The notes under the pieces are model-generated. The model was given only the letters and a program-made list of their open reading frames with translations. It was not told where the DNA came from and did no database searches. Shown one piece after another: positions 20,576 through 64,000 of a stretch of 64,000 nucleotides of DNA. Source of the stretch: Actinomycetes bacterium (GTDB lineage: Bacteria > Actinomycetota > Actinomycetes > Actinomycetales > SCSIO-59966); assembly GCA_046566185.1 (NCBI GenBank), contig JBKHXE010000021.1, forward strand, positions 2,053 to 66,052, given 5' to 3'. Numbering within the stretch: the stretch's first letter is position 1; each line of letters begins with the position of its first letter. A program made the position numbers and the translations under genes.

Positions 20576-20611
20576 GGGACCTCCTGGTGTCGGGAGCGCC
20601 GGAGACACTTC

Positions 20612-46418: not shown

Positions 46419-46466
46419 GTCAGATCCTGACCTGACGCGGAAACGACGGGAACCCTTGTCACGCCC

Positions 46467-46496: not shown

Positions 46497-46622
46497 CGGC
46501 CGTGACGAGCTTCCTGGCGCTCAGCGGCTCCTGGATCCCGTCCCCCCGGCCCCTCGGAGGTGTGCGGGCGTCACCGGCACACCTCGGTGCGTCCACCACG
46601 ACCTCTCACGAGGAGGACCGAT

Positions 46623-48114: not shown

Positions 48115-48480
48115 TCAGGCGACGTGCGGGTGCGTCTGGCGGTACCGGACGACGACGAGCGCGCCGCCGAGGGCCAGCGCCGCGCCGCCCAGCCCGGCCA
48201 CCGCAACCGTGTCCCACGGGATCGCCGTGGCGACCGGCGTGGCGGGCGCGGGCGAGGACTGCTGCTCCTGCAGCGCGACCCGCTCGGTGTACTCGATCTG
48301 CGCCTTCGTGTCGCGGATCCGCTCCGCCTCGACGGCCCTCCGCTCGGCGTACTCGAGCTGGGCCTTGCTCGGCGCCGGGTCGGCGCTCGCCGCGGCGGCG
48401 CCCGCAGGCAGCAGGGTGGCGCCGACGACCAGCGCGCCGGCGGCGAGACGTCGGGTGAGCAGGGTCTGGTCCTGGAACAT
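48115..48480 (-). CDS. small secreted, C-terminally membrane-anchored protein with an internal tandem repeat
   Basis: ORF 48115..48480, 121 aa. ATG 48480 is preceded by GGAGG. It has a signal peptide (RRLAAGALVVGATLLPAGAAAASA), the repeat KAQLEYAERRAVE / KAQIEYTERVALQ, and a C-terminal hydrophobic helix with a basic tail (VAVAGLGGAALALGGALVVVRYRQ). Confidence 0.6.
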   Translation of the reverse strand: MFQDQTLLTRRLAAGALVVGATLLPAGAAAASADPAPSKAQLEYAERRAVEAERIRDTKAQIEYTERVALQEQQSSPAPATPVATAIPWDTVAVAGLGGAALALGGALVVVRYRQTHPHVA

Positions 48481-48576
48481 CGTGACCTCCGTCGGTCCGG
48501 CTCCCCGGGTGGGAGCTCGTGCCGACGACGGTGCCGCCCGTCGGTCACCCGCCGGTCGCGCGACGGCCGCAGGCGG

Positions 48577-51500
48577 TCACGTGCCGGTCTCGCATCGGTC
48601 GCGGTGCAGGTACTGACGGCACTCCTGGTCGGTCATCGGCCTGGTGACGGCGTCCTGCGCCATGGCCAGGAGGTCGTCGAGGTCGAGGGCCCAGACCCGC
48701 ACGAGGTCGTCCTGCCCCGCCGTCACCAGGCGCCGCCCGTCGGGGGAGAAGTCGGCGTAGGTGACAGCCGAGCGGTGACCGTGCAGCGTGACGAGCGGCA
48801 GACCGGTCTCGACGTCCCACACCCGGGCCGTGCGGTCGCCGCTGGACGTCGCCACCCGCCTGCCGTCGGGGCTGAAGTCGACGTCGGTGACGTGGCTGCT
48901 GTGCCCCTCGAGCACGTGGACGACCTCGCCGGTGGAGACGTCCACGATCCGCGCCGGTCCGGTGTAGCTGCCGACCGCGACCTGTGTCCCGTCCGGCGAG
49001 TAGGCCAGCCGCCGCAGGAACCCGAGACCGCCGATCTCGCGCACGATCTCACCGGTCGCGACGTCCCAGACCACGATGCGCACGCCCTCGGCGTTCGCTC
49101 GCTCGTTCGGGGTGGCGATGGCCGCCATGTGCCGCCCGTCGGGTGAGTACGTGGCTCCCTCCAGGCCGGTCCCCTGCGGCGCGGAGAGCACGTCGAGCAC
49201 GCGTCCGTCGCGGTCCACGACGGTCGCGGACCCGTCGATCGTCGACAGCACGAGCCGCTGGCTGTCCGGGCTCCACGACACCCACTCGACGTTGTCGGGG
49301 GCCTCGGCGACGAAGGCGACGTCACCCCCGGCGGCGTCCCAGACCGTGGCGACCGGGGCGAAGAAGCCGGTGGCGGCGACCAGGGTGCCGTCGGGGCTGA
49401 CCGCCAGCGCGCGTGCGGGTTCGGGGTCCCCGGCGCCGGCCGGGGGCCGCATCACGACCGCGGCGCGCCCGGCATCGACGTCCCAGCGGGTCACGGTGGC
49501 GTCGGGGCTCGACGCCACGACCTGGCCGTCGGGCGTGAAGTCGGCGGCGTTCCACTCCGGGTCGCCCATCGCGGGGAGCGCCGCCCACTCGGCCCCGCCG
49601 CCGAGGGTCACGTCGAACACGCTGACCGCCGACACGGCCTCGTCCCCGGTCATGACGAAGCGCCCGTCCGGGGAGAACACCGCGTCGTACAGCCCCTGGG
49701 TGCCCTGGCCCGCAAGGGTCAGCTCGGGCCGCGCCGCGTCCGCCGAGACGTCCCAGACCCGCACCGTGCCGTCGCCGCCGGCGGTGGCGAGGCGACGCGC
49801 GTCGGGCGACCAGGCGACCGCCTGGACTGCCGCCCGGTGCGCCGTCACGGCGTGCACCATGGCGCCGGTCGAGGCGTCGAACACCCGGGCGGCGTGGTCG
49901 CCGTCGGCCGTCGCGACCCACCGGCCGTCCGGGCTGAAGTCCACGTCGGCGACCTCCTTGCCGGCGGCGCGAGCGACCTCTGCCCCGGACCGGGCGTCCC
50001 AGACGACGAGGGTCCCCCGGTCCTCCAGCGGCGCGGCCAGCCGAGCACCGTCGGGGCTCATCGCCAGCGCCCACTTGATGCCGGCCATCGGCCGCTCCTG
50101 GACGACCGAGCGTGTCGGCAGGTCCCAGACCCGCACCGTCGACTGCCCGTCGGCGAACCAGACCGCCGCCACGGTCCGGCCGTCCGGCGAGAACCAGGGT
50201 GACCAGATCTCCCCGGTGCCCGGCAACGAGTGCAGCAGCTCGCCGGTCTGCGGGTCCCAGACGTCCAGCACGCCGTCGTCCCCCGCCGACGCGAGCATCG
50301 TGCCGTCCGGGCTGAAGCGAGCCATGTTGATGTCGACGTCGTCGGCCACCCAGCTGAGCACCGGCTCGCCGGTCCGGGCGTCACGCAGCTCGACGAGCCC
50401 GGACTCCTCGGGCCCCTCGGTGACGAACAGCCGTCCGTCGGGGCTCCAGTCCACCCGGCCGCCCACGCCGTCGACGGAGAGCACCGCCCGGGACGCCGTC
50501 ACTGCCCGGTGCAGCGCGTCCTCGGCCTCCCCGAGGACGGCGAGCCCGTTGTCCCGCGCCAGCTGCGCCGACTCCACGGCCAGCATCACGGCGAGCTCGG
50601 GGTCGGCGTCCAGCACCGCGAGCGAGGACGACGCGAGCTCGCGTGCCTGCGCGACCAGCGCCTCGCGCTCGGCCCGGTCGCCCGCCCGGACGGCGGTGAC
50701 GCCCGCGACGAGCGACACGACGAGCAGCACGCCGACGCCACCGAGCAGCCACCGCAGCCGCCGGTTCTGGCGCGTGGCCTGCGTGGCGCGGCGCTCGGCG
50801 TCGGCGCGCTCCGCGTCGAGGGCGGCGCGAGCGGCCGCGAGGAACTCGGCCTCGAGGTCGGTGATCTCGCCGGGACGGGCAGCGGCCAGGTCGCTGCCCG
50901 CGGCCAGCCGGGCACCCCGCCACAGGTCCGTCGGCTCCCGGCCGCCTTCGGCCCAGTCGACGGCCGCGGCTGCCAGGCGGCCGCGGATCGCGCGGGTCTC
51001 GGCGTCCTCCGCGACCCAGTGGCGCAGCCGCGGCCACTCCCGGTACAGCGCCTCGTGCGCGGCCTCCACCCAGCCGTCGCCCAGACTGAGCAGCCGCGCG
51101 CCCGCCAGGGGGCCGACGACCGCACGCACGTGCGGGTCCGGCAGGGCCGCCAGCTCGGCGAGCGGCACCCGTCGCCGGCTGACGGCCGTGCCCTCCCCGG
51201 TGCCGGCCAGCCGCAGCATCAGCACCCGGACGGCGGCCCGGCCCTCGTCGTCCAGCTCGCCGTAGACGCGCTCGGCGAGCCGGGCCACCGCGCCCCGCAC
51301 GCCGCCGGCGCGGGCGTACGCGGCCAGGGTGAGCCGCGTGCCGTCCCGGTGCTCCCACAGCTCGCTGAGCGCGGTCGACAGCAGCGGCAGCACCCCGGGC
51401 TCCGCGGCGGCGTCGGCGACGAGCGCGTCCGTCAGGCCGACGTCCAGCACCAGACCGGCCCGCTCGGCGGGCAGCTCGACGGCGCGGCGCAGCTCGGCCT

Positions 51501-53571
51501 CGCTCGGCGGTCCGACCAGCACGGTGGAGTCGGACAGCAGCCGCGCCAGCTCCGGGCGACGCGCCACGTCTCCCGCGTGGTCGGCGCGCACCACCAGCAC
51601 GAGGGCCGCGCGGCGGTGGCCGACCGCCAGGTCGACGACGGCCGACAGGAACGCCTCACGCTCGTCCGGGTCGTCGCAGACGGTCCAGAGCTCCTCGGCC
51701 TGGTCGACCACCAGCACGACGCGGCTGTCGTCCGCGCCGTCCAGCACCATCCTCCGCAGCAGGTCGGCCACCTGGTCGGCCGTGGGCTCGGCGCCCCGCA
51801 GGGCCACCCGGGCCAGCTCGTGCATCGGGTGCCGGCCCGGACGCAGGAGCATCACCGGCCACGCCTCGCTGCCCGGCAGCACCCCGGAGCGCAGGGAGGC
51901 GGCGAGCCCGGCCCGCACGAGGCTGGACTTCCCGCTGCCCGAGGTGCCGATCACGGCCAGCACGGTGGACGACGACACGCGCGCCACCAGCTCGGCGACG
52001 AGCCGCTCGCGGCCCGCGAACATCGACGCGTCCTCGACGTCGTAGGCCGCCAGGCCCTTCCACGGGCACACGTCGGCGGCGGGCCCCCGAGGCCGCAGCA
52101 CCTCGCCGAGCCGCACCACCCCGTCCTGCAGCTCGGCGCGCGCGGCGTCCAGCCGTCGCCGACCGTCCCGTGCCTCGGCGGCCGCCGTCTCGACCCGAGA
52201 CATCTCCCGCCGCCGGGCCGTCTCGACGGCGAGGTCGTGCACCGCGCCCGGTCGCCCGCCGGACCGGCGCAGCACGTCCGGCAGCACGTCGCGCGCCACC
52301 TGCTCGGGCAGGTAGGTCTCCAGCAGGGCCCGCACGTCCTCGGGCGCCAGCGGGCCGACGTCGAGGCGCTCCACGTCGGCGGGCACGCCGTCGGGCGTCC
52401 CCATCACGAGGGTGACCGCGGCATCGTCCCCCTGGGTGGGCAGCACCCGCAGGACCCGGCCGCCGGCTCGCGAGGCCGTCCCGGCGTCCGGGCCCGGGTC
52501 GTCGCGCACCTCGTTCCCCGCCGCGGCCACCTCCGCCGCGAACTGGCTGACGAGCCGGCGGACGCCGGAGCCGGGCTGACCGCGGACGACGACCGTGAGG
52601 CCCGGCCGCTGCTCGCTGCGGCGCCACGCGTCGCGCAGCGCCCCGAGCTCGCGCTCCCTGCCGACGAACGCTCCGGGCTCGGGGACCAACGCGGTCGGCA
52701 GCCGGGGCGCCCGGCGCGGGGCAGCCAGGCTCACATCCTGCGCGAGCACCCGGCCGTGCAGGGTCCGCAGCGCCTCGCCCGGCTCGACGCCGAGCTCGTC
52801 GACGAGCTTCTCGCGGGCGCGGTGGTAGGCGGCCAGCGCGTCGGCCTGGCGTCCCTCGCGGTACAGCCCCAGCACGAGCAGCTCCCACAGTCGCTCGCGC
52901 AGCGGGTGGTCGTGGACGGCGGCCTCCAGCTCCGGCAGGCACTCGCGCGAGCGGCCCAGCTCGAGCTCGGCGGCGGCCCGGTCCTCGAACGCGGCGCGCC
53001 GCAGCTCCTCCAGCCGCCGCGCCTCGCCGCCGCCGAAGGCCGTGTCCTCGAAACCGGCGTACGCGGGCCCGCGCCACAGCGCGAGCGCCTGCCGCAGCGT
53101 GGCGGCCGCCGACTCGAGCCGCCCCTCCCGCAAGGCCCGGCGACCGAGCTCCACCAGCCGCTCGAAGTGCCGCGCGTCCACCGCCTCGTCGGGCACCGCC
53201 AGTCGGTACCCCGCGCCGTCGGTGACCAGGACCCGCGGCGGGCCGTCTCGGTCCGGCTCGAGCGACTTGCGCAGGCGCAGCACGTAGTTCTGCACCGACT
53301 TCGTCGCGGACCGCGGCGGGTCGTCCGCCCACAGCGTCCCCACCAGGTCGTCCACGGTGACCGTGCGGCCCGCGGACGCGACGAGCCGCGCGAGCACGGT
53401 GCGCTCCTTCGCCCCCGTGATCTCGACCGGGCCCTCGTCCACCGCTACCTGCAGGGTGCCGAGGACGGCGAACTCCACGCTGGAACCGTAGGGCGGCGCG
53501 GAGGCGCTGGTCATGGGAACTGCTGTACTCGCGCCCGGTCTCCCCGCGGTCACGCGTCGGTCAGACGCCAC
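48577..53571 (-). CDS. SARP-type wHTH + BTAD regulator fused to a degenerate P-loop module, a canonical STAND-type P-loop NTPase, one TM helix and 14 WD40 repeats
   Basis: ORF 48577..53571, 1664 aa (first start GTG 53571; ATG 53514 is the alternative). It has a wHTH (AVLGTLQV...YVLRLRKSL...GYRL) and a BTAD (RQALALWRGPAYAGF...). The degenerate Walker A is GQPGSGVRR (52561..52593). The canonical Walker A is VIGTSGSGKSS (51926..51955), with Walker B VLVVDQAEELW. The TM helix is WLLGGVGVLLVVSLVAGVTAV (about 50690..50755). Fourteen [FWY]SPDG-type blades follow. Confidence 0.85.
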   Translation of the reverse strand: MASDRRVTAGRPGASTAVPMTSASAPPYGSSVEFAVLGTLQVAVDEGPVEITGAKERTVLARLVASAGRTVTVDDLVGTLWADDPPRSATKSVQNYVLRLRKSLEPDRDGPPRVLVTDGAGYRLAVPDEAVDARHFERLVELGRRALREGRLESAAATLRQALALWRGPAYAGFEDTAFGGGEARRLEELRRAAFEDRAAAELELGRSRECLPELEAAVHDHPLRERLWELLVLGLYREGRQADALAAYHRAREKLVDELGVEPGEALRTLHGRVLAQDVSLAAPRRAPRLPTALVPEPGAFVGRERELGALRDAWRRSEQRPGLTVVVRGQPGSGVRRLVSQFAAEVAAAGNEVRDDPGPDAGTASRAGGRVLRVLPTQGDDAAVTLVMGTPDGVPADVERLDVGPLAPEDVRALLETYLPEQVARDVLPDVLRRSGGRPGAVHDLAVETARRREMSRVETAAAEARDGRRRLDAARAELQDGVVRLGEVLRPRGPAADVCPWKGLAAYDVEDASMFAGRERLVAELVARVSSSTVLAVIGTSGSGKSSLVRAGLAASLRSGVLPGSEAWPVMLLRPGRHPMHELARVALRGAEPTADQVADLLRRMVLDGADDSRVVLVVDQAEELWTVCDDPDEREAFLSAVVDLAVGHRRAALVLVVRADHAGDVARRPELARLLSDSTVLVGPPSEAELRRAVELPAERAGLVLDVGLTDALVADAAAEPGVLPLLSTALSELWEHRDGTRLTLAAYARAGGVRGAVARLAERVYGELDDEGRAAVRVLMLRLAGTGEGTAVSRRRVPLAELAALPDPHVRAVVGPLAGARLLSLGDGWVEAAHEALYREWPRLRHWVAEDAETRAIRGRLAAAAVDWAEGGREPTDLWRGARLAAGSDLAAARPGEITDLEAEFLAAARAALDAERADAERRATQATRQNRRLRWLLGGVGVLLVVSLVAGVTAVRAGDRAEREALVAQARELASSSLAVLDADPELAVMLAVESAQLARDNGLAVLGEAEDALHRAVTASRAVLSVDGVGGRVDWSPDGRLFVTEGPEESGLVELRDARTGEPVLSWVADDVDINMARFSPDGTMLASAGDDGVLDVWDPQTGELLHSLPGTGEIWSPWFSPDGRTVAAVWFADGQSTVRVWDLPTRSVVQERPMAGIKWALAMSPDGARLAAPLEDRGTLVVWDARSGAEVARAAGKEVADVDFSPDGRWVATADGDHAARVFDASTGAMVHAVTAHRAAVQAVAWSPDARRLATAGGDGTVRVWDVSADAARPELTLAGQGTQGLYDAVFSPDGRFVMTGDEAVSAVSVFDVTLGGGAEWAALPAMGDPEWNAADFTPDGQVVASSPDATVTRWDVDAGRAAVVMRPPAGAGDPEPARALAVSPDGTLVAATGFFAPVATVWDAAGGDVAFVAEAPDNVEWVSWSPDSQRLVLSTIDGSATVVDRDGRVLDVLSAPQGTGLEGATYSPDGRHMAAIATPNERANAEGVRIVVWDVATGEIVREIGGLGFLRRLAYSPDGTQVAVGSYTGPARIVDVSTGEVVHVLEGHSSHVTDVDFSPDGRRVATSSGDRTARVWDVETGLPLVTLHGHRSAVTYADFSPDGRRLVTAGQDDLVRVWALDLDDLLAMAQDAVTRPMTDQECRQYLHRDRCETGT

Positions 53572-55375
53572 CGCCCGGCGGGTCGGCGGTGTCGAAGCGC
53601 AGTCCGCTCGCCCCTTCGCCGTGGCCCACCCGCACGCGCCGTCCGACCCACAGCGACGTCCCCCCGCCGACGGTGCGCGCCAGCTGGAACGACCGCGTGA
53701 CCACGACGCCGTCCCGCGGCACCTCCTCCTCGGCGACCCGCAGCCGGTCGGTGGCCGGGTCGGCGTCCGGCCGGGACAGCAGCACCGTGCCGCGAGGGTG
53801 CACGAGGTCGACGCGTGGCTGCGTCTCCCCGGCCGGGACGTCGAGGTAGCGCAGCAGCGGCCGGCGCTCCAGCACGTGCGGCGCGGTCAGGTCACCCGGG
53901 CGCTGCCGGACGGCGACCATCGGGATCCAGTTCTCCGGCACCGGGGTCATCAGCCGCCAGACGACCCGGGCGTCACCGAGGTCGTCGGGTGCGGCGCCGA
54001 CGAGGCGGACCGGCGCCGCGAGGCGCCCGACCGGCACCGGCTCGCCGGACGTCGCGTCGGGCACCACCCGCTCGACGCCCCACACGAGGTTCGCCATCTC
54101 GTCGCGGAACAGCGCGACCTCCTCCAGCGGCTCGCCCTCCAGCACGTGCTGCAGCGTCGGCGCCAGCACGAACACCCGGTTGAGCCGGGAGGCGTCGCTC
54201 GCCGCGGTCGACTGGAACGCCGCCCAGCCGGGGCGGGTCGTCTCGCGGGCCGGGGCGATGTCGACCCGGTGACCGAACGTGTCCCGGACCTCGATGCGGT
54301 CCAGCCTCGTCACCGAGCCGTACGGCAGGTCCAGCGGCAGCTGGAACCAGTCGACGCCGTAGGCCAGGGCGAACTCCACGACGGCCAGCCGCGCGAGGTC
54401 GGTGCGCCCGCCCTGCACGCCGCCGAGGTAGACCGCGGAGTCCTCGAAGGCGAAGAGCCGGTCGCTCGGCATGCCGGCGAAGCGCACCGCCGACGGCAGG
54501 TTCGTGTCGGAGACCCGTTGCGCCGCGACCGCTGTCCCACTGCCGCCCAGCGAGGGGCCGGACCGCCCCTCGCCGTGGAACCAGTCCAGCGTGCCGCCGG
54601 TGTAGTCGTCGACGTCGACCACGACCGGGCCGTCGGTGAGGTCGGCCTGGACGGCGAAGCGGTGCTCGAGCCGGTGCGGGTCCCACGAGCTGTCACTGGG
54701 GGCGGCCAGCAGACCCGCACCCCAGGCCCGCCACCCGGCCAGGACGCCGCGGACGTCGTCGGCGGCCATCCCGGCGGCGTCGGCCAGCGGGGCCGGCAGG
54801 TCGTCGTCGGTCAGGGCGGACAGCACCGCCGCGCCGTCCGGGACGCGCCCGGCGGCCAGCCGCAGCCGGCGGGCACCGGCGGGGTCGGCGTCGGCGTCCG
54901 GCGCCGGGAAGGGGTAGGCAGCGACCGCGGCGTCGGCGACGGCGCCGTGGCCGCCGGCGCGGAGCAGCCGCAGCAGGTGCAGCCCGAGCTGCGTGCGCAC
55001 CCGCACCGGCAGCACGGCGGGCACCTCGGCCTCCACCCGCACCTCCAGCGGCACGTCGTCCGGCTCGCCCGGCGCCATCGGCACGACGGTGCCGTCGTCG
55101 CCGGGGCGCAGCCGCGACAGCGGCGCCGTCTCCCCCTCGACGGTGGCGAGTACCGGGGTACCGGCGTCCTCGCCGCGCAGCTCGTCGTACTGCCACTGGC
55201 GCCCGAGCAGCCACAGCGGGTCGCCGAGCAGGGCCTGGGCCCCGGGCGTGAGGTCGCCCCGCGTCAGCGGCAGCGGCTCCAGCCGCGACCAGCGCGGCAC
55301 GACCGGCAGCACCTGCCAGTCGGCGAACTTGCGGTCGATCTCGACCCGCACACTGCCCCAGTCGATCTCAGGCAC
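53561..55375 (-). CDS. hypothetical 604-aa protein, no recognisable domain (third complete gene of the giant-ORFan operon)
   Basis: The 3' 604 codons of ORF 53561..55930. GTG 55375 overlaps the upstream stop by 8 nt (GTGCCTGA). The frame has high G/C at codon position 3 and a balanced composition. Distinctive strings are LGDPLWLLGRQWQYDELRGEDAGTPV, FAGMPSDRLFAFEDSAVYLGG and VPENWIPMV. Confidence 0.75.
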   Translation of the reverse strand: MPEIDWGSVRVEIDRKFADWQVLPVVPRWSRLEPLPLTRGDLTPGAQALLGDPLWLLGRQWQYDELRGEDAGTPVLATVEGETAPLSRLRPGDDGTVVPMAPGEPDDVPLEVRVEAEVPAVLPVRVRTQLGLHLLRLLRAGGHGAVADAAVAAYPFPAPDADADPAGARRLRLAAGRVPDGAAVLSALTDDDLPAPLADAAGMAADDVRGVLAGWRAWGAGLLAAPSDSSWDPHRLEHRFAVQADLTDGPVVVDVDDYTGGTLDWFHGEGRSGPSLGGSGTAVAAQRVSDTNLPSAVRFAGMPSDRLFAFEDSAVYLGGVQGGRTDLARLAVVEFALAYGVDWFQLPLDLPYGSVTRLDRIEVRDTFGHRVDIAPARETTRPGWAAFQSTAASDASRLNRVFVLAPTLQHVLEGEPLEEVALFRDEMANLVWGVERVVPDATSGEPVPVGRLAAPVRLVGAAPDDLGDARVVWRLMTPVPENWIPMVAVRQRPGDLTAPHVLERRPLLRYLDVPAGETQPRVDLVHPRGTVLLSRPDADPATDRLRVAEEEVPRDGVVVTRSFQLARTVGGGTSLWVGRRVRVGHGEGASGLRFDTADPPGGGV

Positions 55376-58300
55376 CGGTGCTCCCCGCCTTCCCCAGCAC
55401 GTGGTCGGCCAGCAACCCGCCGACGCCGGCGAGCTCCGCCGCGACCGCCAGCTCGCGCAGCCGCACGCCGGGCACGTCGCGGGTGTAGGTGTCCGGCAGG
55501 AACAGCGCCGGCAGGAACGTGGACAGCGGCGCCAGCTCGGCGGCGCCCACGGTGCGCAGCCGGGCGAGGTCGACTGCCTCGGTGACACAGCCCAGCAGGG
55601 CGTCGAAGTCCCAGCGCCGCGCCTCGGCGTCCGGGTGCAGCCCGAGCAGCATCGTCTGCGGCGCCCGGGCTCCCGGCGCGTCGTACTGGAACGCCACCGC
55701 GGTGGTGTCGGACGCCGCCGGCACCGTCTCGGTCCAGGCGTCGACCACCACGCCGGCGGCCGGCTGCGCCGGGTCGACGTCCTGCGGCGCGTGCAGCACC
55801 AGGCCGACGACACCGTGCGGTGGCGGCACGGGGACGCCCCGCTCGTCGCGCTCGAACGGCAGCGCGACCCAGCGGGCGCCGGGCCGGTGCGGCGCCTGGA
55901 CGACGCGCAGGTCGGCGGCGACGTCCGCACCGTCCGCCTCGGCGTGCGCGAGCAGCGACGCCAGCGGGTCGAGCGCGGGCCTCACCAGGCTGCGGGTGTG
56001 CAGCCACGTCACCGCCGCGGTCTCGTCGGAGCCCAGCAGCGCGTCGCGGTCGGCGAGCGCGGCGGCCAGCGGGGCCGGTGCCGCGGGCAGCACCAGGGGC
56101 AGGAACGGCTGGTCGGCGCCGAGCAGGGTCCGCACGACGGCGCGCGCGGCGACCAGGCCCGGCGGCTCGGCGGGGCCCGGCGGGTCGCCGGCGGCCGGGT
56201 CCGTCGCCGAGGCGTCGGTGCCGGTGAGCAGCGCGTCGGCGGCGGCGAGCCGGGAGCGGAGCCGGTCGAGCACGGCGGCGGCGTGAGTGGCGCCGTCGTC
56301 GTCCCCGGCCGGCGACACGGCGTCCGGCCCGTCGAGGGGCACCACGGCCAGCAGCGCGTCGGCCAGCGCGTCGGCGTCCCCGCCGGCGAGGGCGGTCTCG
56401 AGCGCCGCCACCAGGCCGGCGGCGGCCGCCCGCACCGCTCCCGCCCGGGCGACCGCCTCGGTGACGTCGTACCGCCCGGGCGGGCTGCCGGCGCCGCCGG
56501 ACAGGTCGTCGGAGGCGACCAGGTCGGCGGGGGTCAGCACCGGGGCGCCGGCGACGTCCGCGGCCCAGCCGGCGAGGTCGAGCACCGGCGCGAGGCCGGC
56601 GGCCTCGACGCTGACGGCGTCGTCCGGGCCGGGCTGGTGGCCGCCGGTCTCGGCGGCCCGGCCGAGTGCCAGGGCGGCGCGCAGCTCCAGCTCGGTGGGC
56701 CTGCCCCCGGCGGGCCGGCGGGCGGCGAGGGCGAACGACAGCGCGCCCAGACCCGCCGCCACCGCGTCGACACCCACCGACAGCGGCACCGCCGGCTCGC
56801 GGTCGAGCGTCCCGGTGACGCGCCACCGGTCGGGGCGGCCGAGCACGGTGCCCACCCAGCGGTCCAGCCGCGGCTCGGCGACCGAGCGGATGTCCTCCGG
56901 CCAGCCACCGGCGGGGTCGTCCGGCTCCGCGGGCAGCCACAGCCCGACGCGGTGCGCGACGACGGCGCCGTCGCGGGGGGTCCGCACGAACTCCGGGTCC
57001 GGCGGCGGCGCCTGGCGGTCGTGCGCGGCCAGCGCCGCGCCGGAGCGCTCCAGGTTGCCGGCGGTCGCCTGGTGCACGGCCTCGGCCACGAGCACGTCGC
57101 TCACCGCGTCCGCGAGGCCGGCCACGGCGTCCAGCACCGCGGCGACGGCGGCGTGGTCGGCGGCGGCGACGCCGGCCGCGGTGAGCAGCCCGGTCCGCTC
57201 GCGCTCCCAGCGCGCCAGCAGCGCGACGCCGTCGACGACGTCGCGGGCCGCCACCGACTCCACGGGCTCGACGAGCTCCGGGTCGTCGGGCCGTTCGCTG
57301 CGCAGCGGGCACTGCATCCGCAGCGGCAGGATCCACCGGGCCAGCCGCAGGTCGGCCCGCTGCAGGCCGCGCTCCACCCGGTACCCGAGCAGCGCGGCCA
57401 GCCGCTGCCCCGAGCCGATGCCCTCGAGCAGCCGCAGGGCCTCGCGGACCCGGCGGGAGGTGAGGTCGAGGTCGAACACCTCGCCGGCACCGGTGCGGTG
57501 CGCCATCCGCGCGCTGCGCATCACGGCCAGCGAGACCGCCTGGCCGAGGGAGGGCGCGTGCACGAAGCCGGCGCTGTCGGCGGCCGGCCCGGTGTCGCGG
57601 CGCAGGTCCTCGACGACGCCCCAGCCGCCGAGGTGCACCCCGGTCGGGGCGGTGCCGCGGCGCTCCTGCAGCCGCGCCGCCGCCAGCGACGTGAACCAGG
57701 CGTCGAGCCGGGTCGCGTACAGGTCGAGGACGCCGCGGAACGCCCAGTCCAGCTGGCCGGGGGGCGCCTCGGTGAGCGTCGTGACCGCCTCGCGGTACCG
57801 GGCGAGCCGGTGCAGCGGGCTGTCCGGGACGTCGAGCAGGTCGCGGAACGCGGACGCCTGCCGCCAGAAGGCGGTCGCGACGTGCTCGCCGAGCGTGGCC
57901 GTGCCGGTCAGCTGCGGCAGCACGGTGCTCGACAGCTCCAGCGGGGTGCTCGGCACCGCGACGGCGGACCCGGGCGCCGCGGGGGCGGACACCTCCGGCT
58001 CCACCCGCAGCGTGAACGGCACCCGGTCGGCGGTGCGGCCGAGGTAGGCCGTGAACTCCGGTGAGACGCCGAGGGTCGGCGCGGCGTCCCGGGCGGCCTG
58101 CTTGGCGGCCAGGTCGTACTCGCGCACCAGCGCGTACGCGAGGAAGGCCTCCAGCAGCGCGACCGAGTTCGTCCGGCCGTCGACGAGCCGGCGGGCGTCC
58201 GGCTGCGACATCGCGTCGAGCAGCTCCGCCAGGTAGCCGGTCGGGTCGGCCAGGTCGGGGCGGGCGACGAGCGGGACGTCGAGGCCCCGGCCGGTGGGGT

Positions 58301-60119
58301 CGTGCACGAGCTGGGTCAGCGGCACCGTCGGGTACCAGCCCATCGTCCCGAGCACGGTCGCGGTGACCCGGTGCTGCAGGTCGGCGAGCGCGCCGATCTT
58401 CTGTCCCGCGTAGCGGAACTCCGCCGGCCCGGTGAGCACCCGGAAGTCCAGCGACCACGCGACCGGGGTGCGCTGCAGCAGCCGCAGCAGCACGTCGTCC
58501 GCGTCCTCGCGGGTGCGTACGTCGGCGATCCGCGGCACGAGTGCGACGAGCTCCTCGACGAGGCCGCGCAGCCGGCCGCCGACGGTCAGGACGTCGCGCT
58601 GCGCCCGGCGGCCGCGGGTCGGCGCGAAGGAGCGCGGGACGACCGGGAGCAGCCCGTACGGCTGGTCGGCGACGCGCCAGGTCGGCAGCGGCCCGCCGGG
58701 GCGCAGGTGGGCCGCGGCGTGGTCGCGCAGCGCCTGCTCGACGCGCTCGTCGTCCACCAGCGGGTCGAGCATCTCCCGCAGGTAGTAGCCGGCCGTGGCG
58801 GGCCACAGCGCGTCCACCAGCGCGCCCTGCCAGGCCTGCTCGCGCAGGTCGGCGCCCGGGACGCCGGCGAGCACCGAGCCGCCGAGCCCGAGGGCGGACG
58901 CCGTCAGGGTCGCGGCGTCGTCCGGGCGTGGCGCGGCGAACCGGTGCGGGGCGAGCTGCTCGCGGGCGGCGGCGGGGTCGCTGCTGAAGCCGCTGCGCAC
59001 GGCCCGGTCCTGCCCCGGGCCCGGGGACGCGGTGGAGTTCGTCGCCGTGCCCTGCGGCACGAACGCGAGGTCACCCTCGCCGGCGAGCCCGGCGAGGTGC
59101 GCCTCGAGCGCGGCAGCGCCCTGCGCCGGGTCGAGCGTGCGGTCGACCCCGAGGACGACGAGCCGGTCGACGCCGTCCGCGAGGCGGACGCCGGGCACGA
59201 CGTCGGACTGCTCGACGGTGACGAGCATGCCCACCGACTCCGCGGCGTCCGGGTCGTGCACCCAGCGCAGGCCCTCGTCGGCGGGCAGACCGCGCGGGGT
59301 CGCGGGGGCCTCGGGGTCGGGTCGGGGGCCGACCTGCAGGGTGTCGGGGACGGTGCTGCCCCACACGCGGAAGATCTGCCGGTGGCGTCCCTCGGCCTCC
59401 CGGCGGAACCCGACGACCGCCCACCGGTCGGGCAGCAGGGTCGCCTGCGGCGCGCGGCTCCACGCGGCGGCGCGGCGCGGCAGGTCGTCCCAGCGCGGCG
59501 CCTCGTCGTCGGTCCCGAGGTTCACCGGTGGGTAGGTGCGGACCAGGAACGCGGCCCGGCCGGGACGCAGCCGGGTGGCGAGCACCCCCCACGCCTCGTC
59601 GGCGAGGACGTCGACCAGCGGGTCGGGGGCCAGCGGGTCGTCCGGCCCGCGGTGCGGCCACCGGTGCTCCCAGTACCAGCGCAGGCCCTTCTCCTCGTCC
59701 TCGGTGAGCGCCGGGTCGTGCGTGCTGACGTGCACCTGGTCGGGGAACACCCGCACGCGCAGCCGGTCCGGCCCGTCGAAGCGGGTCTCGATCCGGACCG
59801 GCAGCAGCAGCACCGGGTGGTCGGCGGACAGGGACGTCACGGCGTCCTCGGGCGACCCGACCTCGAGCAGCCGGTCCGCGAGCTCGCCGACGCGCAGCCT
59901 GGCGCCCGTCTCCCGGGCGAGCAGGTCGCGGCGCTCGGTGACCAGCCGCCGCAGTGTCTCGTCCTCGCGCTCGGTGACCGAGGTGTCGCCGGCGCCGAGT
60001 GCGGCGTCCCGGGCGGTGGAGGCCTCCGCGACGGCGACGTCGAGCAGGCGCAGCCGCTCCTGGTGCTCGGCGACCGAGCGGCGGGCCGCGGTGATGGCGG
60101 TGAGGTCGAGGTCCGGCAT
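55368..60119 (-). CDS. hypothetical 1583-aa protein, no recognisable domain (second complete gene of the giant-ORFan operon)
   Basis: ORF 55368..60119. ATG 60119 is preceded by GGGGGAG in an 18-nt gap. A charged helical N-terminus (~100 aa) is followed by PVLLLPVRIETRF...VRVFPDQVHVSTHDPALTEDEE. I found no Walker, HExxH, signal-peptide or TM features. Confidence 0.8.
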   Translation of the reverse strand: MPDLDLTAITAARRSVAEHQERLRLLDVAVAEASTARDAALGAGDTSVTEREDETLRRLVTERRDLLARETGARLRVGELADRLLEVGSPEDAVTSLSADHPVLLLPVRIETRFDGPDRLRVRVFPDQVHVSTHDPALTEDEEKGLRWYWEHRWPHRGPDDPLAPDPLVDVLADEAWGVLATRLRPGRAAFLVRTYPPVNLGTDDEAPRWDDLPRRAAAWSRAPQATLLPDRWAVVGFRREAEGRHRQIFRVWGSTVPDTLQVGPRPDPEAPATPRGLPADEGLRWVHDPDAAESVGMLVTVEQSDVVPGVRLADGVDRLVVLGVDRTLDPAQGAAALEAHLAGLAGEGDLAFVPQGTATNSTASPGPGQDRAVRSGFSSDPAAAREQLAPHRFAAPRPDDAATLTASALGLGGSVLAGVPGADLREQAWQGALVDALWPATAGYYLREMLDPLVDDERVEQALRDHAAAHLRPGGPLPTWRVADQPYGLLPVVPRSFAPTRGRRAQRDVLTVGGRLRGLVEELVALVPRIADVRTREDADDVLLRLLQRTPVAWSLDFRVLTGPAEFRYAGQKIGALADLQHRVTATVLGTMGWYPTVPLTQLVHDPTGRGLDVPLVARPDLADPTGYLAELLDAMSQPDARRLVDGRTNSVALLEAFLAYALVREYDLAAKQAARDAAPTLGVSPEFTAYLGRTADRVPFTLRVEPEVSAPAAPGSAVAVPSTPLELSSTVLPQLTGTATLGEHVATAFWRQASAFRDLLDVPDSPLHRLARYREAVTTLTEAPPGQLDWAFRGVLDLYATRLDAWFTSLAAARLQERRGTAPTGVHLGGWGVVEDLRRDTGPAADSAGFVHAPSLGQAVSLAVMRSARMAHRTGAGEVFDLDLTSRRVREALRLLEGIGSGQRLAALLGYRVERGLQRADLRLARWILPLRMQCPLRSERPDDPELVEPVESVAARDVVDGVALLARWERERTGLLTAAGVAAADHAAVAAVLDAVAGLADAVSDVLVAEAVHQATAGNLERSGAALAAHDRQAPPPDPEFVRTPRDGAVVAHRVGLWLPAEPDDPAGGWPEDIRSVAEPRLDRWVGTVLGRPDRWRVTGTLDREPAVPLSVGVDAVAAGLGALSFALAARRPAGGRPTELELRAALALGRAAETGGHQPGPDDAVSVEAAGLAPVLDLAGWAADVAGAPVLTPADLVASDDLSGGAGSPPGRYDVTEAVARAGAVRAAAAGLVAALETALAGGDADALADALLAVVPLDGPDAVSPAGDDDGATHAAAVLDRLRSRLAAADALLTGTDASATDPAAGDPPGPAEPPGLVAARAVVRTLLGADQPFLPLVLPAAPAPLAAALADRDALLGSDETAAVTWLHTRSLVRPALDPLASLLAHAEADGADVAADLRVVQAPHRPGARWVALPFERDERGVPVPPPHGVVGLVLHAPQDVDPAQPAAGVVVDAWTETVPAASDTTAVAFQYDAPGARAPQTMLLGLHPDAEARRWDFDALLGCVTEAVDLARLRTVGAAELAPLSTFLPALFLPDTYTRDVPGVRLRELAVAAELAGVGGLLADHVLGKAGSTGA

Positions 60120-60137
60120 CGGTGGGCTCCCCCGGGC

Positions 60138-63100
60138 TCAGCGCTGCACCGGCAGCGGGGACGTCAGGTGGCGGGCGTGCACGTACAGCGCGAACGGCTT
60201 CTGGAACAGGACGGCGGCCACGTCGTCCGCCCGGGAGGCCGCGCCGTTGAGGCCGAGCGCCGGGAACGCCGTGCGGGTGAGGTGCCCGCCGTGCGTCACC
60301 CCGGTCGCCGGCCACGCCAGGGCGTCGCTGCCGCTGCCCGGCTCGGCCGTCTCGTCGAGCCCGAAGCGCGGCTCGGTGACCGGCTCCATCAGCGCGAAGA
60401 ACCAGCCGTCGCCGTCGGTCAGATCGGTGTCGACGAGCGGGAACCCGAAGAACGACACGTCGGGGTCGAACTGCCCGGCGAACACCGGCTCGAGGACGTC
60501 GGCGGTGTCCCGGCTCGGTCGGGTGCCGTCGGCCCGGACGGCGAGCACCACGGTGTGCGGGTAGCGGCGCAGCAGGTCGCCGCGCACCAGCAGGACGAGG
60601 TTCCCGCGCGGGTCGGTGGTCTGCTGGGCGAGGGTGCCCGCACCCCACGTGTGCAGCGGGGGGACGTCGGAGCGGCCGTCGAGACGGTCCCAGAACCGGC
60701 GGAACGGGGTGCCGCGGCTGTCGGTGGGGTAGCCGCGCCAGAGCAGCTCGGAGTTCGTCTCGTGGTTCAGCCCCGCCATGAACGCGGCGATGAAGCGCGG
60801 GTTGGTCTCCAGCAGGCTCACCGAGTCCGGCGGGATCGCGTCGATGCCCGGGCAGAAGCGTGCCTGGTCGTACTCGGCGAGGTAGCGGTACGCGGGGACG
60901 TCGAGCACCGGGTAGGCCATCACCCGGTCCGCGGCCGGCGTCGCCCACCAGCCGTCGGCGCCGGTGAAGGGCCCGGTGAGGGTGCCGACGGTGGCCCCCG
61001 CGAAGCGCAGCGACGCGTCGCGGCGCAGGGGCTGCGCCACTGCCGGGTCGAGGTGGGCCAGCGCGGCCGCGGTGACCGAGCCGAGGTCGAGCGGCACGAG
61101 GGTGGCGGTGACCTCGGGGGTCGTCAGGGTCGACACGTCACGCCACAGCGTGACCGCCAGCTCGAAGCGGCCGATGGTCGCGGCGTCGGTGACCAGCGGC
61201 GGCATCGTCACGGTGGGCCGGCCGCCGGGCGGCGGCGCAGGGCCGACGACGACGGGGCCGGGCTCCACCACGGGTCCGGGCACCACCGGGCCGGGCAGCG
61301 TCGGCCTCGGCCGACCCGCGCCGGGCAGGCCGGGCAGTCCGGGACGCGCCGGCCCGGGCCGCGAGCGCAGCGCCCCGAGGCCGGTCCGCGCCTCGGCGGG
61401 CGCGGCGCGCACGACGGAGGGCACCGACGCGTGCCCCGGGCGCAGCCCGCCGCGCGTGAGTACCGGCAGGTCGGCGTCGGCCGCGCGGACGGCGTGCAGC
61501 ACGCCCGGTCCGAGCCGCGCGACGACGGCGGTGAGGTCGGCGCCCGCGAGCGAGCCGTCCAGGGCCGCGACCGGCCGGTTGCGGCGGCCCGCCTCGGTGC
61601 GCAGCACGAGCCGGCCCCCGGTGTCGACGTCCAGCACCCCGACGTCCACCGCGGTGTCGACGCGCCCGCCGGCGACCGTCGGGCCCTCCAGCAGCAGCCC
61701 GACGCCGGGCGTGCGGCCGGCGCCCTCGACGAGGGCCTCGCTGAGCGCGCCGGTGGAGACGGCGAGTGCGGTGTCCACGTCGACCCGCACGTCCTGCTCG
61801 ACCAGCGCCCGGGTGACGGTGACCGCCAGGTCGCGGGCCGCCTCCAGGTGGGCGGTGCCGAGCATCCCGGTGTCGCGCAGGTCCGGCCGGGTCGTCCACA
61901 GCTCCAGCGGCGTGCCGTCCTGCGTCGAGGTCACCGCCTGCGCCGCGGACGCCAGCCCCCGGACGTCCTCGCGCCGCACCTGCACCGGCAGGCCGAGACC
62001 CGCGAGGTCGCCGGCGCCGTCCAGCGCCGCGGGGTCGAAGCCGCTGAGCACCGGGCGCTCGAAGCGGGTGGCGTCGACGTCGCGGCGCCCCTGGGCCAGT
62101 GCGGCGACCAGCCCCGGGCGCAGCGCCGTGCCGGTCACGCCGACACGGCGGGCGGCGCGCTGGACGGCGCGCCCGGCCGGGGCCAGCGCCCGCCGGAACC
62201 CGGCGCCGAGGACGGCGTCGGGCGTCGACGTGCGCGCCACCGCCGCGGTCAGGGCGCGGCCGGCGACCGGCAGCCGGGCGGCGACGGGACCGACGACGGT
62301 GAGCAGCCGCTCGTCGTCCATCGGCGCCAGGTGCCGGCGGTGGAAGGCGCGGGAGAGCAGCGTCGCGAGCGCGGCGCGCTGCAGCGCGGCCTCGGCGTCC
62401 AGCACGTCGCCGACCTGCTGCCAGGCGGCGTGCACGATGTCCTCCTGGTGCTGCCGGACGCACTCGGCGCCGAGGCCGGCGGCGACCCGGGGCCGCGGGT
62501 CGAGGTTGAGCTCGCGGAACCACACCGGGTCGCTCGGGCCGACCTGCCAGCGCCGGCGGTGCGAGGAGGCGTAGACCGGCGGCCCGACCGGCTGGCGGTC
62601 GGTCTCCGCGACGACGCCGTCGAGCCGGCCGTCGGCGGCGTCGGCGAGGGTCCGGCTGACCGTGGCGAGCCCGTCGACCAGCGTGGCCGCCACCTGTGCG
62701 AGGGTGCCGTCGCTGCCGGCGGTGGCACGCAGCGCGCCGTCCATGTCGATGCGCCGCTGGTCGGGGTCGTCCGCGTCGACCGGGGCGGGCACTCGCAGCG
62801 GCGGCGGGTTGGCGCCGACGTGCATCGGCACGTAGCCGACCGTCGCGGGTGCCTCGAACGGCCGCAGCCGCTGCGCGAGGGCCTCGAAGTCGCCCTCGGG
62901 CCCGGTCTGGAACCGCCAGTGGTGGTAGACGGGCAGGGTGACCGACTCCGGCGACGACCAGGCCGGCGCCAGCGACTCGCCGTCCGGCGTGCCGCCCAGG
63001 CCCCGGACGACGCCGGCGTCGAAGGCGGGCACGAGGGCGGCGACCCAGCGCCGGCCCGGCGCCAGCCGGCGCGGGCACATCAGGCGGGCGACGTTGCGGT

Positions 63101-63662
63101 CGGGCTGCGCGCCGAGGGTGTCGGCCACCGCCTGCGGCGTGGCGGCGCCGCCGGTCGGTGCGACCAGCTGCACGTGCGCCCAGGCCCAGGAGTCGGCGAG
63201 GTCGGGCAGCTCGGCGGCCGCCCCGCTCTCGATCCGCAGGCGCGGCAGCGGCGCACCGGTCGGCAGGCTCACGGTAACGCCGGGCCGGTCCTCGACGACG
63301 ACGAGCACCAGCCACGGCAGCAGCCGGTCGCTCGCGCCGCGCGGCGTGAACAGCCACGGCAGCTCGGGGGCGTCGAGGTCCACGGCGGCGAGGTAGTTCG
63401 GCTCCGCGTCGGTGGTGTGCGGGCGCGGCGACATCCGCACCACCTGGGCGGGGTCGAGGCCCACCACGTCGCCCGGTCCGAACAGGGTCGCGCCGGTGGT
63501 GACGGTGGGGTCCCCGGTGACGCCCGCGACGGTCGCCGTGACGACCACGCCGGCACGCAGGGGCACGCTCGGCGGCGCGCTCGACGACGCGGCCGGCTCG
63601 TCGGGCAGTGCCGCGGCGAGCCCGCGGCGCGCCCACGGCAGGAAGCGGTAGGTGGTGGCCAC
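60138..63662 (-). CDS. hypothetical 1174-aa protein, no recognisable domain (first complete gene of the giant-ORFan operon)
   Basis: ORF 60138..63662. GTG 63662 lies 1 nt after the upstream stop. The N-terminus is MATTYRFLPWARRGL. There is an internal Pro/Gly-rich linker (encoded about 61215..61375). The C-terminal block is LLWRGYPTDSRGTPFRRFWD...LLRRYPHTVVLAV. There is no signal peptide or TM segment. Confidence 0.8.
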   Translation of the reverse strand: MATTYRFLPWARRGLAAALPDEPAASSSAPPSVPLRAGVVVTATVAGVTGDPTVTTGATLFGPGDVVGLDPAQVVRMSPRPHTTDAEPNYLAAVDLDAPELPWLFTPRGASDRLLPWLVLVVVEDRPGVTVSLPTGAPLPRLRIESGAAAELPDLADSWAWAHVQLVAPTGGAATPQAVADTLGAQPDRNVARLMCPRRLAPGRRWVAALVPAFDAGVVRGLGGTPDGESLAPAWSSPESVTLPVYHHWRFQTGPEGDFEALAQRLRPFEAPATVGYVPMHVGANPPPLRVPAPVDADDPDQRRIDMDGALRATAGSDGTLAQVAATLVDGLATVSRTLADAADGRLDGVVAETDRQPVGPPVYASSHRRRWQVGPSDPVWFRELNLDPRPRVAAGLGAECVRQHQEDIVHAAWQQVGDVLDAEAALQRAALATLLSRAFHRRHLAPMDDERLLTVVGPVAARLPVAGRALTAAVARTSTPDAVLGAGFRRALAPAGRAVQRAARRVGVTGTALRPGLVAALAQGRRDVDATRFERPVLSGFDPAALDGAGDLAGLGLPVQVRREDVRGLASAAQAVTSTQDGTPLELWTTRPDLRDTGMLGTAHLEAARDLAVTVTRALVEQDVRVDVDTALAVSTGALSEALVEGAGRTPGVGLLLEGPTVAGGRVDTAVDVGVLDVDTGGRLVLRTEAGRRNRPVAALDGSLAGADLTAVVARLGPGVLHAVRAADADLPVLTRGGLRPGHASVPSVVRAAPAEARTGLGALRSRPGPARPGLPGLPGAGRPRPTLPGPVVPGPVVEPGPVVVGPAPPPGGRPTVTMPPLVTDAATIGRFELAVTLWRDVSTLTTPEVTATLVPLDLGSVTAAALAHLDPAVAQPLRRDASLRFAGATVGTLTGPFTGADGWWATPAADRVMAYPVLDVPAYRYLAEYDQARFCPGIDAIPPDSVSLLETNPRFIAAFMAGLNHETNSELLWRGYPTDSRGTPFRRFWDRLDGRSDVPPLHTWGAGTLAQQTTDPRGNLVLLVRGDLLRRYPHTVVLAVRADGTRPSRDTADVLEPVFAGQFDPDVSFFGFPLVDTDLTDGDGWFFALMEPVTEPRFGLDETAEPGSGSDALAWPATGVTHGGHLTRTAFPALGLNGAASRADDVAAVLFQKPFALYVHARHLTSPLPVQR

Positions 63663-63663
63663 G

Positions 63664-64000
63664 TCAGACCCCCTGCAGCTCGAACGCCTCGACGGTCAGC
63701 GTGCCGCTGGCGGCCGCCTGCTGCTCGGCGACGGCGGCCGAGCCGGCCAGCGCCGGCGCGAGCTCCGCGGCCACCTCGAGATCGCCGGCGTCCACCAGCG
63801 CGATGGGCAGGTCACGGGTCACCGCCGCCGCACCGGGGCCCCCGGCGAGCAGCGCCGCCGTCGTCGCCCGCACCGAGCGGGCCGCCGCCCCGAACGCCAC
63901 GTGGACGCCGAGCAGCGCGTCGTCCAGCGCCGCCGCGCGGTCGACGAGGGTGAGCCGCCACGGCCAGCGCGCCACCTCCGGCTCCGGCTCGAGCAGCTTC
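63664..64000 (-). CDS. hypothetical protein, 3' end only (frame open to the right edge of the window)
   Basis: The ORF track lists 63664..63975, but the same frame has no stop up to 64000 (KLLEPEPEVARWPWRL...). The gene therefore probably starts outside the window. It is Ala-rich, with no family recognised. Confidence 0.5.
   Translation of the reverse strand, partial: KLLEPEPEVARWPWRLTLVDRAAALDDALLGVHVAFGAAARSVRATTAALLAGGPGAAAVTRDLPIALVDAGDLEVAAELAPALAGSAAVAEQQAAASGTLTVEAFELQGV

Follow-up and report, generated by a model that had tools for sequence, protein, structure and literature searches.

A conserved cassette of giant proteins in bacteria and archaea that may encode a surface-binding particle

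Introduction

The Tc (ABC) toxins consist of TcA, TcB and TcC, a few giant subunits of 1000–2500 amino acids (aa) that lack signal peptides, carry variable receptor-binding inserts and are encoded by linked genes. The umbrella toxin particles of Streptomyces are another known particle weapon. The tail fibres of extracellular contractile injection systems (eCIS) combine Ig-like domains, lectins and collagen stalks (PMC12923769). Here we consider a set of giant-protein genes in a 64,000-nucleotide stretch of DNA from an Actinomycetes bacterium (positions 2,053 to 66,052 of contig JBKHXE010000021.1, assembly GCA_046566185.1; the whole stretch is hereafter the window). Three complete genes, gB, gC and gD, and the end of a fourth, g2, lie on the minus strand from position 53561 to the end of the window. 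The region is very probably the 3′ two-thirds of a five-gene operon of ~16 kb, and a copy of an autonomous, horizontally transferred and widespread cassette.

We also have little doubt that the obligate core of the cassette is g2-gB-gC-gD, that g1 is an optional first gene, and that the gene for a SARP-nSTAND1-WD40 protein (gE) beside it in the window is no component. Each cassette holds ~5,300 co-translated residues without an assigned function, family (beyond one domain of unknown function, DUF) or recognisable fold. As for what these residues do, our tentative suggestion is a new kind of multi-subunit, signal-peptide-less particle that binds the surfaces of target cells.

The operon and its reading frames

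Because the window is ~77% G+C, long spurious open reading frames (ORFs) occur in every frame, and the correct frames were picked by codon-position composition (G+C at the third and second codon positions, GC3 and GC2). The minus-strand frames of the four genes have a GC3 of 0.96–0.98 and a GC2 of 0.53–0.57, and the overlapping alternative ORFs, including those on the plus strand, have a phase-shifted composition signature. The genes and their junctions are as follows.

63664..>64000, minus strand: partial cassette gene 2 (g2; the gA fragment), GC3 0.96, matched by the g2 hidden Markov model (HMM)
60138..63662, minus strand: gB, 1174 aa, GTG start, GC3 0.974
55368..60119, minus strand: gC, 1583 aa, ATG start, GC3 0.98
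53561..55375, minus strand: gD, 604 aa, GTG start, GC3 0.962
63660..63666, minus strand: g2/gB junction, TGA-C-GTG with a 1-nt gap and a G-run 8–12 nt upstream
60117..60140, minus strand: gB/gC junction, TGA, an 18-nt spacer with a Shine-Dalgarno-like GGGGGAG, and ATG at 60119
55368..55375, minus strand: gC/gD junction, an 8-nt overlap, GTGCCTGA, with the gD start within the gC stop region

ORF calls and codon composition agree on the coordinates, lengths and starts of these four genes, which a preliminary description of the window, made from its letters alone, had already set out, and the three junctions are also as that description claimed. The 1-nt g2/gB gap recurs in the called genes of loci L001, L003, L004, L005 and L006, and the 8-nt gC/gD overlap in loci L003, L004 and L006; the 1-nt junction is predicted to be one of translational coupling. 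The predicted N-termini (xxxYRFLPW, MPxxDL and MPxxDW) agree with the consensus of the three families.

The closest relative of the window is locus L006, a contig from another sample, which is 96.4% identical to it over 10,428 nt (blastn). Synonymous-only codon changes between the two outnumber non-synonymous ones by ~2:1 (69:42 in gB, 109:58 in gC, 39:21 in gD), and the three frames are therefore taken to be under purifying selection. From this and from their GC3, gB, gC and gD are judged to be real genes. A possible hotspot of diversifying selection at gB codons 701–800, which change more between the window and L006, was rejected, as synonymous changes rise there too. Scans of the window for tRNA genes and Rfam families gave no matches, and an exact-protein look-up returned no record identical to gB or gD.

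The part of the cassette beyond the window was reconstructed via L006, whose gC product is 96% identical to that of the window. The partial gene at 63664..64000, which comprises the last 111 codons and the stop of a ~1129-aa DUF6603 (PF20248) protein, shares 91% identity over 103 aa with the C-terminus of the L006 DUF6603 protein, itself a match to PF20248 at 7.3e-99. By this homology, the fragment is identified as the C-terminus of a DUF6603 protein, with the DUF6603 domain itself lying outside the window. A PhoD-like gene, g1, precedes the DUF6603 gene in L006, and so the "at least 4 genes" of the preliminary description become five; on the same comparison, the operon in this genome is predicted to start ~5.6 kb past position 64000 and to total ~16 kb. 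One observation on g2 concerns residues ~531–555 of the L006 protein, likewise beyond the end of the window. Here a conserved hydrophobic stretch rich in Gly (consensus GWSLLLxIxxQFPxxHxAFGIFLTGxGGxIGLHH) is the sole near-transmembrane-like segment in the cassette, and could be a buried core or a membrane-active element.

The g1 product (~834 aa) appears to be a divergent PhoD-like metallophosphodiesterase. Characterised PhoD enzymes are extracytoplasmic phosphodiesterases, including teichoic-acid hydrolases. As this genome's g1 lies beyond the end of the window, the assignment was tested on relatives: all 26 aligned g1 orthologues match Pfam PhoD (PF09423; best 3.9e-11), 24 of the 26 match the N-terminal DUF7800, and the motifs GDQIYAD, DDHE..DDW and GDVH are invariant. 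The similarity is faint in places, with the L006 g1 reaching a PhoD score of 21 bits vs a Pfam gathering score of 27. Profiles of g1 and g2 searched against PDB sequences gave no significant match; the best for g1, to Bacillus subtilis PhoD (2yeq), was weak (E 0.34). On these motifs, g1 is the sole recognisable enzyme of the cassette, and a predicted PhoD-like one.

A conserved and mobile cassette

Around homologues in other genomes the gene order is constant: a ~835-aa protein (g1), a ~1120-aa DUF6603 protein (g2), gB, gC and gD. HMMs of the five cassette proteins were run on 78 species loci (~74 of them non-redundant), and g2-gB-gC-gD was colinear and on the same strand in 47 of the 50 loci with room for it, a strong conservation of order that bears out the preliminary description's treatment of the giant genes as one unit. 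Two of the three non-colinear loci, L018 and L057, carry single-ORF fusions of gC and gD, and the third, L032, is frameshifted. The first gene is less constant, with g1 present in 29 and absent from 34 of the 63 loci with room, and it is usually missing from betaproteobacterial copies. Nitrosospira sp. NpAV, for instance, has just the four core genes, flanked by a porin gene on one side and a DUF3015 gene on the other.

The fusions come from metagenome-assembled genomes of Acidimicrobiia (L018, 13268–19453, 2062 aa; L057, 12898–19593, 2232 aa), and both ORFs match the gC and gD HMMs end to end, in the manner of a natural Rosetta stone. The opposite is seen in Rhizobium lusitanum, where gB is split in two genes, and gC likewise, with the order kept. 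As the coupling junctions are conserved, gC and gD are naturally fused, gB and gC are split elsewhere and gD has invariant segments modelled with low confidence (see below), we infer that the cassette proteins form an obligate complex. A tandem arrangement was observed in locus L091 (ENA contig_26633, 1–22235), which holds two cassettes on one contig; the first is broken up into numerous shorter genes, the last of them a gD with a collagen tail, after which comes an F5/8-type-C protein, and a second pair of PhoD-like and DUF6603 genes begins ~5 kb downstream.

The families themselves are large, and the label "ORFan" given to these proteins in the preliminary description has to be dropped, each having hundreds to thousands of homologues. 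Word-indexed searches, whose counts are lower bounds, returned at least 1916 homologues of gB, at least 559 of gD and at least 317 of gC, all annotated "hypothetical" and none with a precomputed Pfam domain. In an exhaustive profile search with gD, 4,965 cluster representatives (50% identity) passed E <= 1e-3, and 1,889 passed E <= 1e-30. When a single genome per species was scanned, gB relatives turned up in at least 554 species genomes, which span some nine bacterial phyla, including Actinomycetota, Cyanobacteria, Chloroflexota, Alpha-, Beta- and Gammaproteobacteria, Acidobacteriota, Gemmatimonadota and Myxococcota. The carriers are mostly soil and freshwater organisms. Those in culture include Streptomyces klenkii KCTC 29202, Planotetraspora thailandica NBRC 104271, Winogradskya humida NBRC 14915, Rubellimicrobium rubrum YIM 131921, Sphaerotilus hippei DSM 566, Nitrosospira sp. 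NpAV and Streptomyces longwoodensis NBC 00651, the last with its copy on a plasmid. Plasmid-borne copies occur in Streptomyces, Rhizobium, Nocardia, Paraburkholderia, Gemmatirosa and four haloarchaea, those of the haloarchaea on megaplasmids. Across phyla and domains of life the cassette proteins are 35–68% identical, and the gB of this actinomycete is 57% identical to a protein of the alphaproteobacterium Rubellimicrobium, which points to horizontal transfer and strong constraint.

Two database records deserve a separate word. Carriage by a phage was suggested by a single match, MT835531.1 (L087), named "UNVERIFIED: Bacteriophage sp." and obtained from human faeces, and was rejected: this 40-kb unannotated scaffold, with gB-, gC- and gD-like giants, has 75–78% GC, looks actinobacterial and is most likely a misbinned bacterial contig. 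On Streptomyces anthocyanicus plasmid NZ_CP109276.1 (L089), a gD-like gene (19986–21791, 601 aa) stands alone beside IS5 transposases and an SMI1/KNR4 gene; gB, gC and DUF6603 are not annotated there. A cassette remnant is the probable explanation, and as the PLSDB table omits pseudogenes, fragments of the other genes are possible.

The SARP-STAND-WD40 neighbour

Downstream of gD, gE (48577..53571, minus strand) encodes a protein of 1664 aa with BTAD/SARP, nSTAND1 and WD40 regions, the nSTAND1 domain matching at 5.9e-113 (Pfam). The preliminary description had the giant-gene operon run into this gene, with a possible start at GTG 53571 just inside gD. That start can stand as one option only; ATG 53514 and GTG 53478 are alternatives, the latter giving MEFAVLG, which we take to look like a typical SARP N-terminus. 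The boundary between cassette and neighbour is drawn as follows.

53561..53575, minus strand: end of homology with L006, cassette boundary (blastn)

Homology between the window and L006 stops at 53575, which is 12 nt short of the gD stop codon (counted to its first base) and is also where the putative GTG start of gE lies. Past this breakpoint, the tail of L006 matches nothing in the window, and the gD/gE junction is therefore read as a rearrangement breakpoint. Other cassettes also lack a constant neighbour. When flanking ORFs were clustered by BLAST, no family occurred in more than 9 of the ~74 loci, and side and strand were inconsistent. For the 103 nearest flanking genes (~70 other loci), a pooled Pfam scan was topped by extracytoplasmic function (ECF) sigma factors (4/103) and major facilitator superfamily transporters (3/103), followed by assorted metabolic families, and no STAND, eCIS, integrase or defence family was among the 25 most frequent. 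On this comparative evidence gE is best described as a neighbour by rearrangement and not as a conserved partner of the cassette. The link to a STAND/SARP regulator drawn in the preliminary description is accidental, and a misleading association is removed.

Sequence and predicted fold of gB, gC and gD

Profile searches agree with the preliminary description that gB, gC and gD cannot be placed in a named family. The three proteins gave no matches in Pfam, NCBIfam, PHROGs or PADLOC, and none significant against PDB sequences, whether searched as single sequences or as profiles of 70–76 sequences. Scans of gB, gC and gD confirmed the reported absence of Walker A and HExxH motifs and also found no CxxC motif; Pfam and inspection of conservation revealed no NTPase, nuclease, helicase or DNA-binding signature in the cassette core. 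Likewise, no signal peptide or transmembrane segment was seen in nine proteins of the actinomycete and Nitrosospira versions, by the crude means of a 19-residue Kyte-Doolittle scan and inspection of N-termini, and the subunits have no sortase motif or lipobox. A nearly invariant "RRGL" in gB adjoins a modelled strand (3–8) and helix (14–18) and is itself followed by acidic residues, with no Tat-type h-region. Paralogy among gB, gC and gD was considered and rejected, with hhalign probabilities of at most 1%.

Within gB, a beta-rich N-terminal region (~1–315) and a helical and alpha/beta C-terminal region (~827–1162) are conserved, and between them lie a helical part (~326–650) and a variable, partly disordered, Pro-rich middle (~550–850). 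In gC, conservation is poor over the first ~90 residues, a faintly coiled-coil-like stretch that precedes a conserved LLPVRIETRF motif; in the PDB profile search only residues 11–92 showed any likeness, to coiled-coil proteins, at E > 1.

Folds were predicted from family alignments with AlphaFold2 (AF2) for gB (predicted local distance difference test, pLDDT, 83; predicted template modelling score, pTM, 0.61) and gD (pLDDT 81, pTM 0.77), and the two models were searched with Foldseek against a PDB library dated April 2026. A PDB of that date should hold contractile-injection baseplates, Tc toxins and many defence complexes. At a significance threshold of E <= 0.001, and with template modelling (TM) scores normalised to the query below 0.1 throughout, gB had no PDB neighbour (best E 0.41, generic Ig-like sandwiches only) and gD had none in the PDB (best E 0.28) or in the viral library BFVD (best E 0.096). 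The preliminary description's idea of an undescribed system thus still stands, as no confident match to known machinery emerged from the profiles of gB, gC and gD or the structures of gB and gD.

Two stretches of gD behave unusually in the model.

~55159–55300, minus strand: gD segment 26–73 (conservation, AF2)
~54358–54472, minus strand: gD segment 302–340 (conservation, AF2)

Both contain many invariant residues and are among the most conserved stretches of gD, yet they are modelled at pLDDT <50, and so they may become ordered only on a partner. They are candidate inter-subunit docking segments.

Domain decorations on related cassettes

Orthologous cassettes carry additional domains, which interrupt or extend their proteins where conservation is lowest. 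In the cassette of the Streptomyces longwoodensis plasmid, g1 bears PG_binding_1 and the variable middle of gB contains FG-GAP. In Halalkalicoccus, gD bears LTD, and Pfam finds decapeptide repeats in the gC, a protein of 3124 aa whose record is annotated "BGTF surface domain-containing protein". The gD cluster representatives include proteins with N-terminal IPT/TIG, with C-terminal collagen triple-helix repeats, with PASTA, and with PA14, F5/8-C and GLEYA together, and the PA14- and collagen-decorated gD genes sit within the same cassette type. A further C-terminal extension, that of gD variant P0437, gave a non-significant beta-propeller hint against the PDB. The gD of the window is a bare core, lacking the modules seen in other lineages.

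Judged by their families, these decorations are adhesin, lectin or wall-binding modules, overwhelmingly of extracellular type. A collagen stalk followed by a head domain is a fibre architecture, and the combinations are similar to those of the eCIS tail fibres mentioned above. Because such domains are typical of extracellular proteins, the large cytoplasmic assembly offered as one option in the preliminary description is disfavoured.

Proposed role and alternative explanations

As the cassette is widespread, strongly conserved and under purifying selection, it must do something important. A reading that we favour tentatively is the released, surface-binding particle introduced above. The four or five proteins, made in fixed proportion by translational coupling, would assemble in the cytoplasm into a single large hetero-oligomeric particle, which would leave the cell through lysis or some route that the cassette itself does not encode, like tailocins, eCIS and Tc toxins, and would then act on the surface of other cells. 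In such a particle gD would be peripheral, serving as a platform for interchangeable receptor-binding modules (lectin or adhesin domains, peptidoglycan-binding PASTA, collagen stalks and Ig-like spacers), and the variable middles of gB and gC could be further display sites. At the target, the PhoD-like subunit, when present, might cleave nucleic acid or a phosphodiester-linked polymer of the envelope, for example teichoic acid. DUF6603, together with the conserved parts of gB and gC, would make up the particle body and might also supply the damaging activity. The copy in the window would be an undecorated minimal version. Assembly, export, target binding and any enzymatic role are all proposed here by inference.

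Several observations weigh against this proposal. Export is entirely assumed, as the subunits of the actinomycete and Nitrosospira versions have no signal peptide or transmembrane segment, and flank clustering and the Pfam scan found no lysis, secretion or chaperone gene conserved beside the cassette. The only recognisable enzyme, g1, is dispensable, given its absence from more than half of the loci with room (34/63), and the window's own proteins carry no binding module. A known fold may also hide in gC or DUF6603, the fold tests having covered gB and gD, and Foldseek on whole multi-domain models can miss similarities of small domains.

The same decorations could instead belong to a structure on the surface of the producing cell, exported and in some lineages anchored to the wall via PG-binding or PASTA domains, where it would not attack other cells but act as a giant adhesin, a sheath or an organiser of the matrix. 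PASTA, PG_binding_1, LTD, the "BGTF surface domain", FG-GAP, PA14 and collagen are what one expects of cell-surface proteins, many carriers grow as filaments or form aggregates (actinomycetes, Leptolyngbya/Phormidium, Anaerolineae, the Sphaerotilus-Rubrivivax group and Myxococcales), and the chromosomal flanks of the cassette are housekeeping genes and not islands. However, no signal peptide, sortase motif, lipobox or transmembrane anchor was found in any subunit, and no linked secretion gene; a cassette that is patchily distributed, horizontally transferred, present on plasmids and at times duplicated in tandem also suits a conflict or weapon module better. We regard a producer-surface structure as unlikely, though worth keeping in view.

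Proteins without signal peptides, spread patchily by horizontal transfer and sometimes carried on plasmids, might equally work inside the cell, as a conflict or defence complex that senses invaders, with the PhoD-like protein as a nuclease subunit and, here, with control by the SARP-nSTAND1-WD40 protein. Metallophosphoesterases can be nucleases, and besides the STAND gene adjoining the cassette in the window there is an NB-ARC gene ~6 kb from it on the S. longwoodensis plasmid. The neighbourhood evidence speaks against this, with no enrichment of defence, integrase or STAND genes in the top families of the 103 nearest flanking genes, and with the STAND gene absent even from the 96%-identical L006, where homology ends at breakpoint 53575. 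PADLOC-DB 2.0 returned no match for gB, gC, gD or the gA fragment, and only two marginal P-loop matches (E ~0.005–0.008) for gE. There is no ATPase, helicase or DNA-binding motif, the supposed nuclease is missing in about half of the cassettes, and PG-binding, PASTA, PA14, collagen and LTD domains make little sense in the cytoplasm. An intracellular defence role seems less probable again than a producer-surface structure.

A highly diverged baseplate-fibre module of a contractile injection system or phage tail, or a relative of the Tc (ABC) toxins with homology too faint to detect, would account for the parallel between the receptor-binding decorations and eCIS fibres. A DUF6519 gene lies immediately upstream of the cassette in Winogradskya, and in eCIS tail fibres the DUF6519 domain serves as the baseplate anchor, eBAP5 (PMC12923769); in the literature library searched, DUF6519 appears in eCIS-fibre papers only. 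One Winogradskya homologue bears the database name "Tail protein P2 I", and the DUF6603 C-terminus in the window weakly matches DUF5047 (E 0.003). Yet the DUF6519 adjacency is found in one genome among ~74 non-redundant loci. Pfam scans, which covered gB, gC, gD, the g2 fragment, g1 and g2 of L006 and the Nitrosospira cassette, found no sheath, tube, baseplate-J, gp25, VgrG, PAAR, Tail_P2_I, VRP1, SpvB or RHS domain, and the gB and gD models have no significant PDB neighbour, nor gD one in BFVD. Such a distant kinship is very unlikely. The "Tail protein P2 I" identity was itself rejected, since none of 76 gD family members, the named one included, matches Tail_P2_I and there is no fold match. 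In Winogradskya humida (L003/L010, 1–3765), the DUF6519 gene and a gene for an 868-aa protein with a weak VWA_2 match precede the cassette, an arrangement seen only there, and B_lectin, TIG and ECF-sigma genes follow it.

Finally, a phosphate-scavenging complex built on the PhoD-like phosphatase, which would suit g1 and the mostly soil and freshwater carriers, is scarcely credible, as g1 is absent from about half of the cassettes while the other four, giant, proteins are invariant, such a complex has no apparent use for ~4,500 aa of partner proteins, and no Pho-regulon genes are among the top neighbouring families.

Other features of the window

Elsewhere in the window, two genes at 34676–41409 (minus strand) encode a UvrD-helicase/PD-(D/E)XK protein (RecB/AddA-like, 1192 aa) and a RecC-like protein (Exonuc_V_gamma and RecC_C, 1127 aa), with stop-to-stop ORF coordinates that overlap by ~230 nt. 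At 43389–48002 (plus strand), a subtilase of ~1009 aa (Peptidase_S8, PA, fn3_6 and PPC) is followed by a 498-aa LVIVD-repeat protein, and both genes are convergent with gE. A 442-aa ORF (42023–43351, plus strand) and a 153-aa ORF (48115–48576, minus strand) have no Pfam match. A 921-aa histidine kinase (HisKA and HATPase_c; 8481–11246, minus strand) has an N-terminal region like a sodium:solute symporter (SSF).

Comparison with described systems

Single elements of the locus are familiar. The PhoD motifs and the N-terminal DUF7800 that g1 keeps liken it to the PhoD family (PF09423; B. subtilis PhoD, 2yeq), although it is longer (~834 aa vs 527 in the 2yeq chain), lacks a Tat signal and is encoded within an operon of giant proteins. 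For g2, the partial gene gives the C-terminus of a DUF6603 (PF20248) protein, and DUF6603 is only a name: no paper mentioning DUF6603 or PF20248 was found in the library searched, and, as far as we found, its constant partnership with gB, gC and gD has not previously been described. With the nSTAND1 conflict systems of multicellular bacteria the link is through gE, which has BTAD, nSTAND1 and WD40 regions and is not the conserved partner of the cassette.

As a whole, the cassette resembles the eCIS, including the Photorhabdus virulence cassettes (PVC) and the antifeeding prophage (Afp), in being a multi-gene operon of large signal-peptide-less proteins, in joining a conserved core to receptor-binding modules that can be exchanged (collagen stalks, lectins and Ig-like domains), and in its patchy spread by horizontal transfer across bacteria and archaea. 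It differs from them in having only 4–5 genes, with no sheath, tube, spike, baseplate or AAA ATPase gene among them; no sequence or fold similarity was found for gB or gD, and association with eCIS genes is not conserved. With the Tc toxins it has in common a few giant signal-less subunits, variable inserts in a scaffold and tight gene linkage. In contrast to them, it has no VRP1, TcA (neuraminidase-like or TcB-binding), SpvB or RHS domains and no recognisable C-terminal hypervariable toxin domain, gB and gD have no significant PDB neighbour, and its carriers are mostly free-living environmental bacteria.

Since none of the comparisons run with eCIS, Tc toxins and known defence systems, at the fold level for gB and gD, places the cassette among them, it appears to lie outside every known kind of system. 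With some hesitation, we suggest that it could represent an unrecognised class of modular machine with unsolved folds, spread over bacteria and archaea, that binds and damages or manipulates its targets after release. Even if this mechanism is wrong, the four-gene minimal core, the optional enzyme and the cultured carriers make a clean experimental target. If it is right, the cassette would be an additional particle weapon or adhesion machine beside the contractile injection systems and the Tc toxins, and, should it target surfaces through swappable modules, it could offer a retargetable protein scaffold, as eCIS/PVC do.

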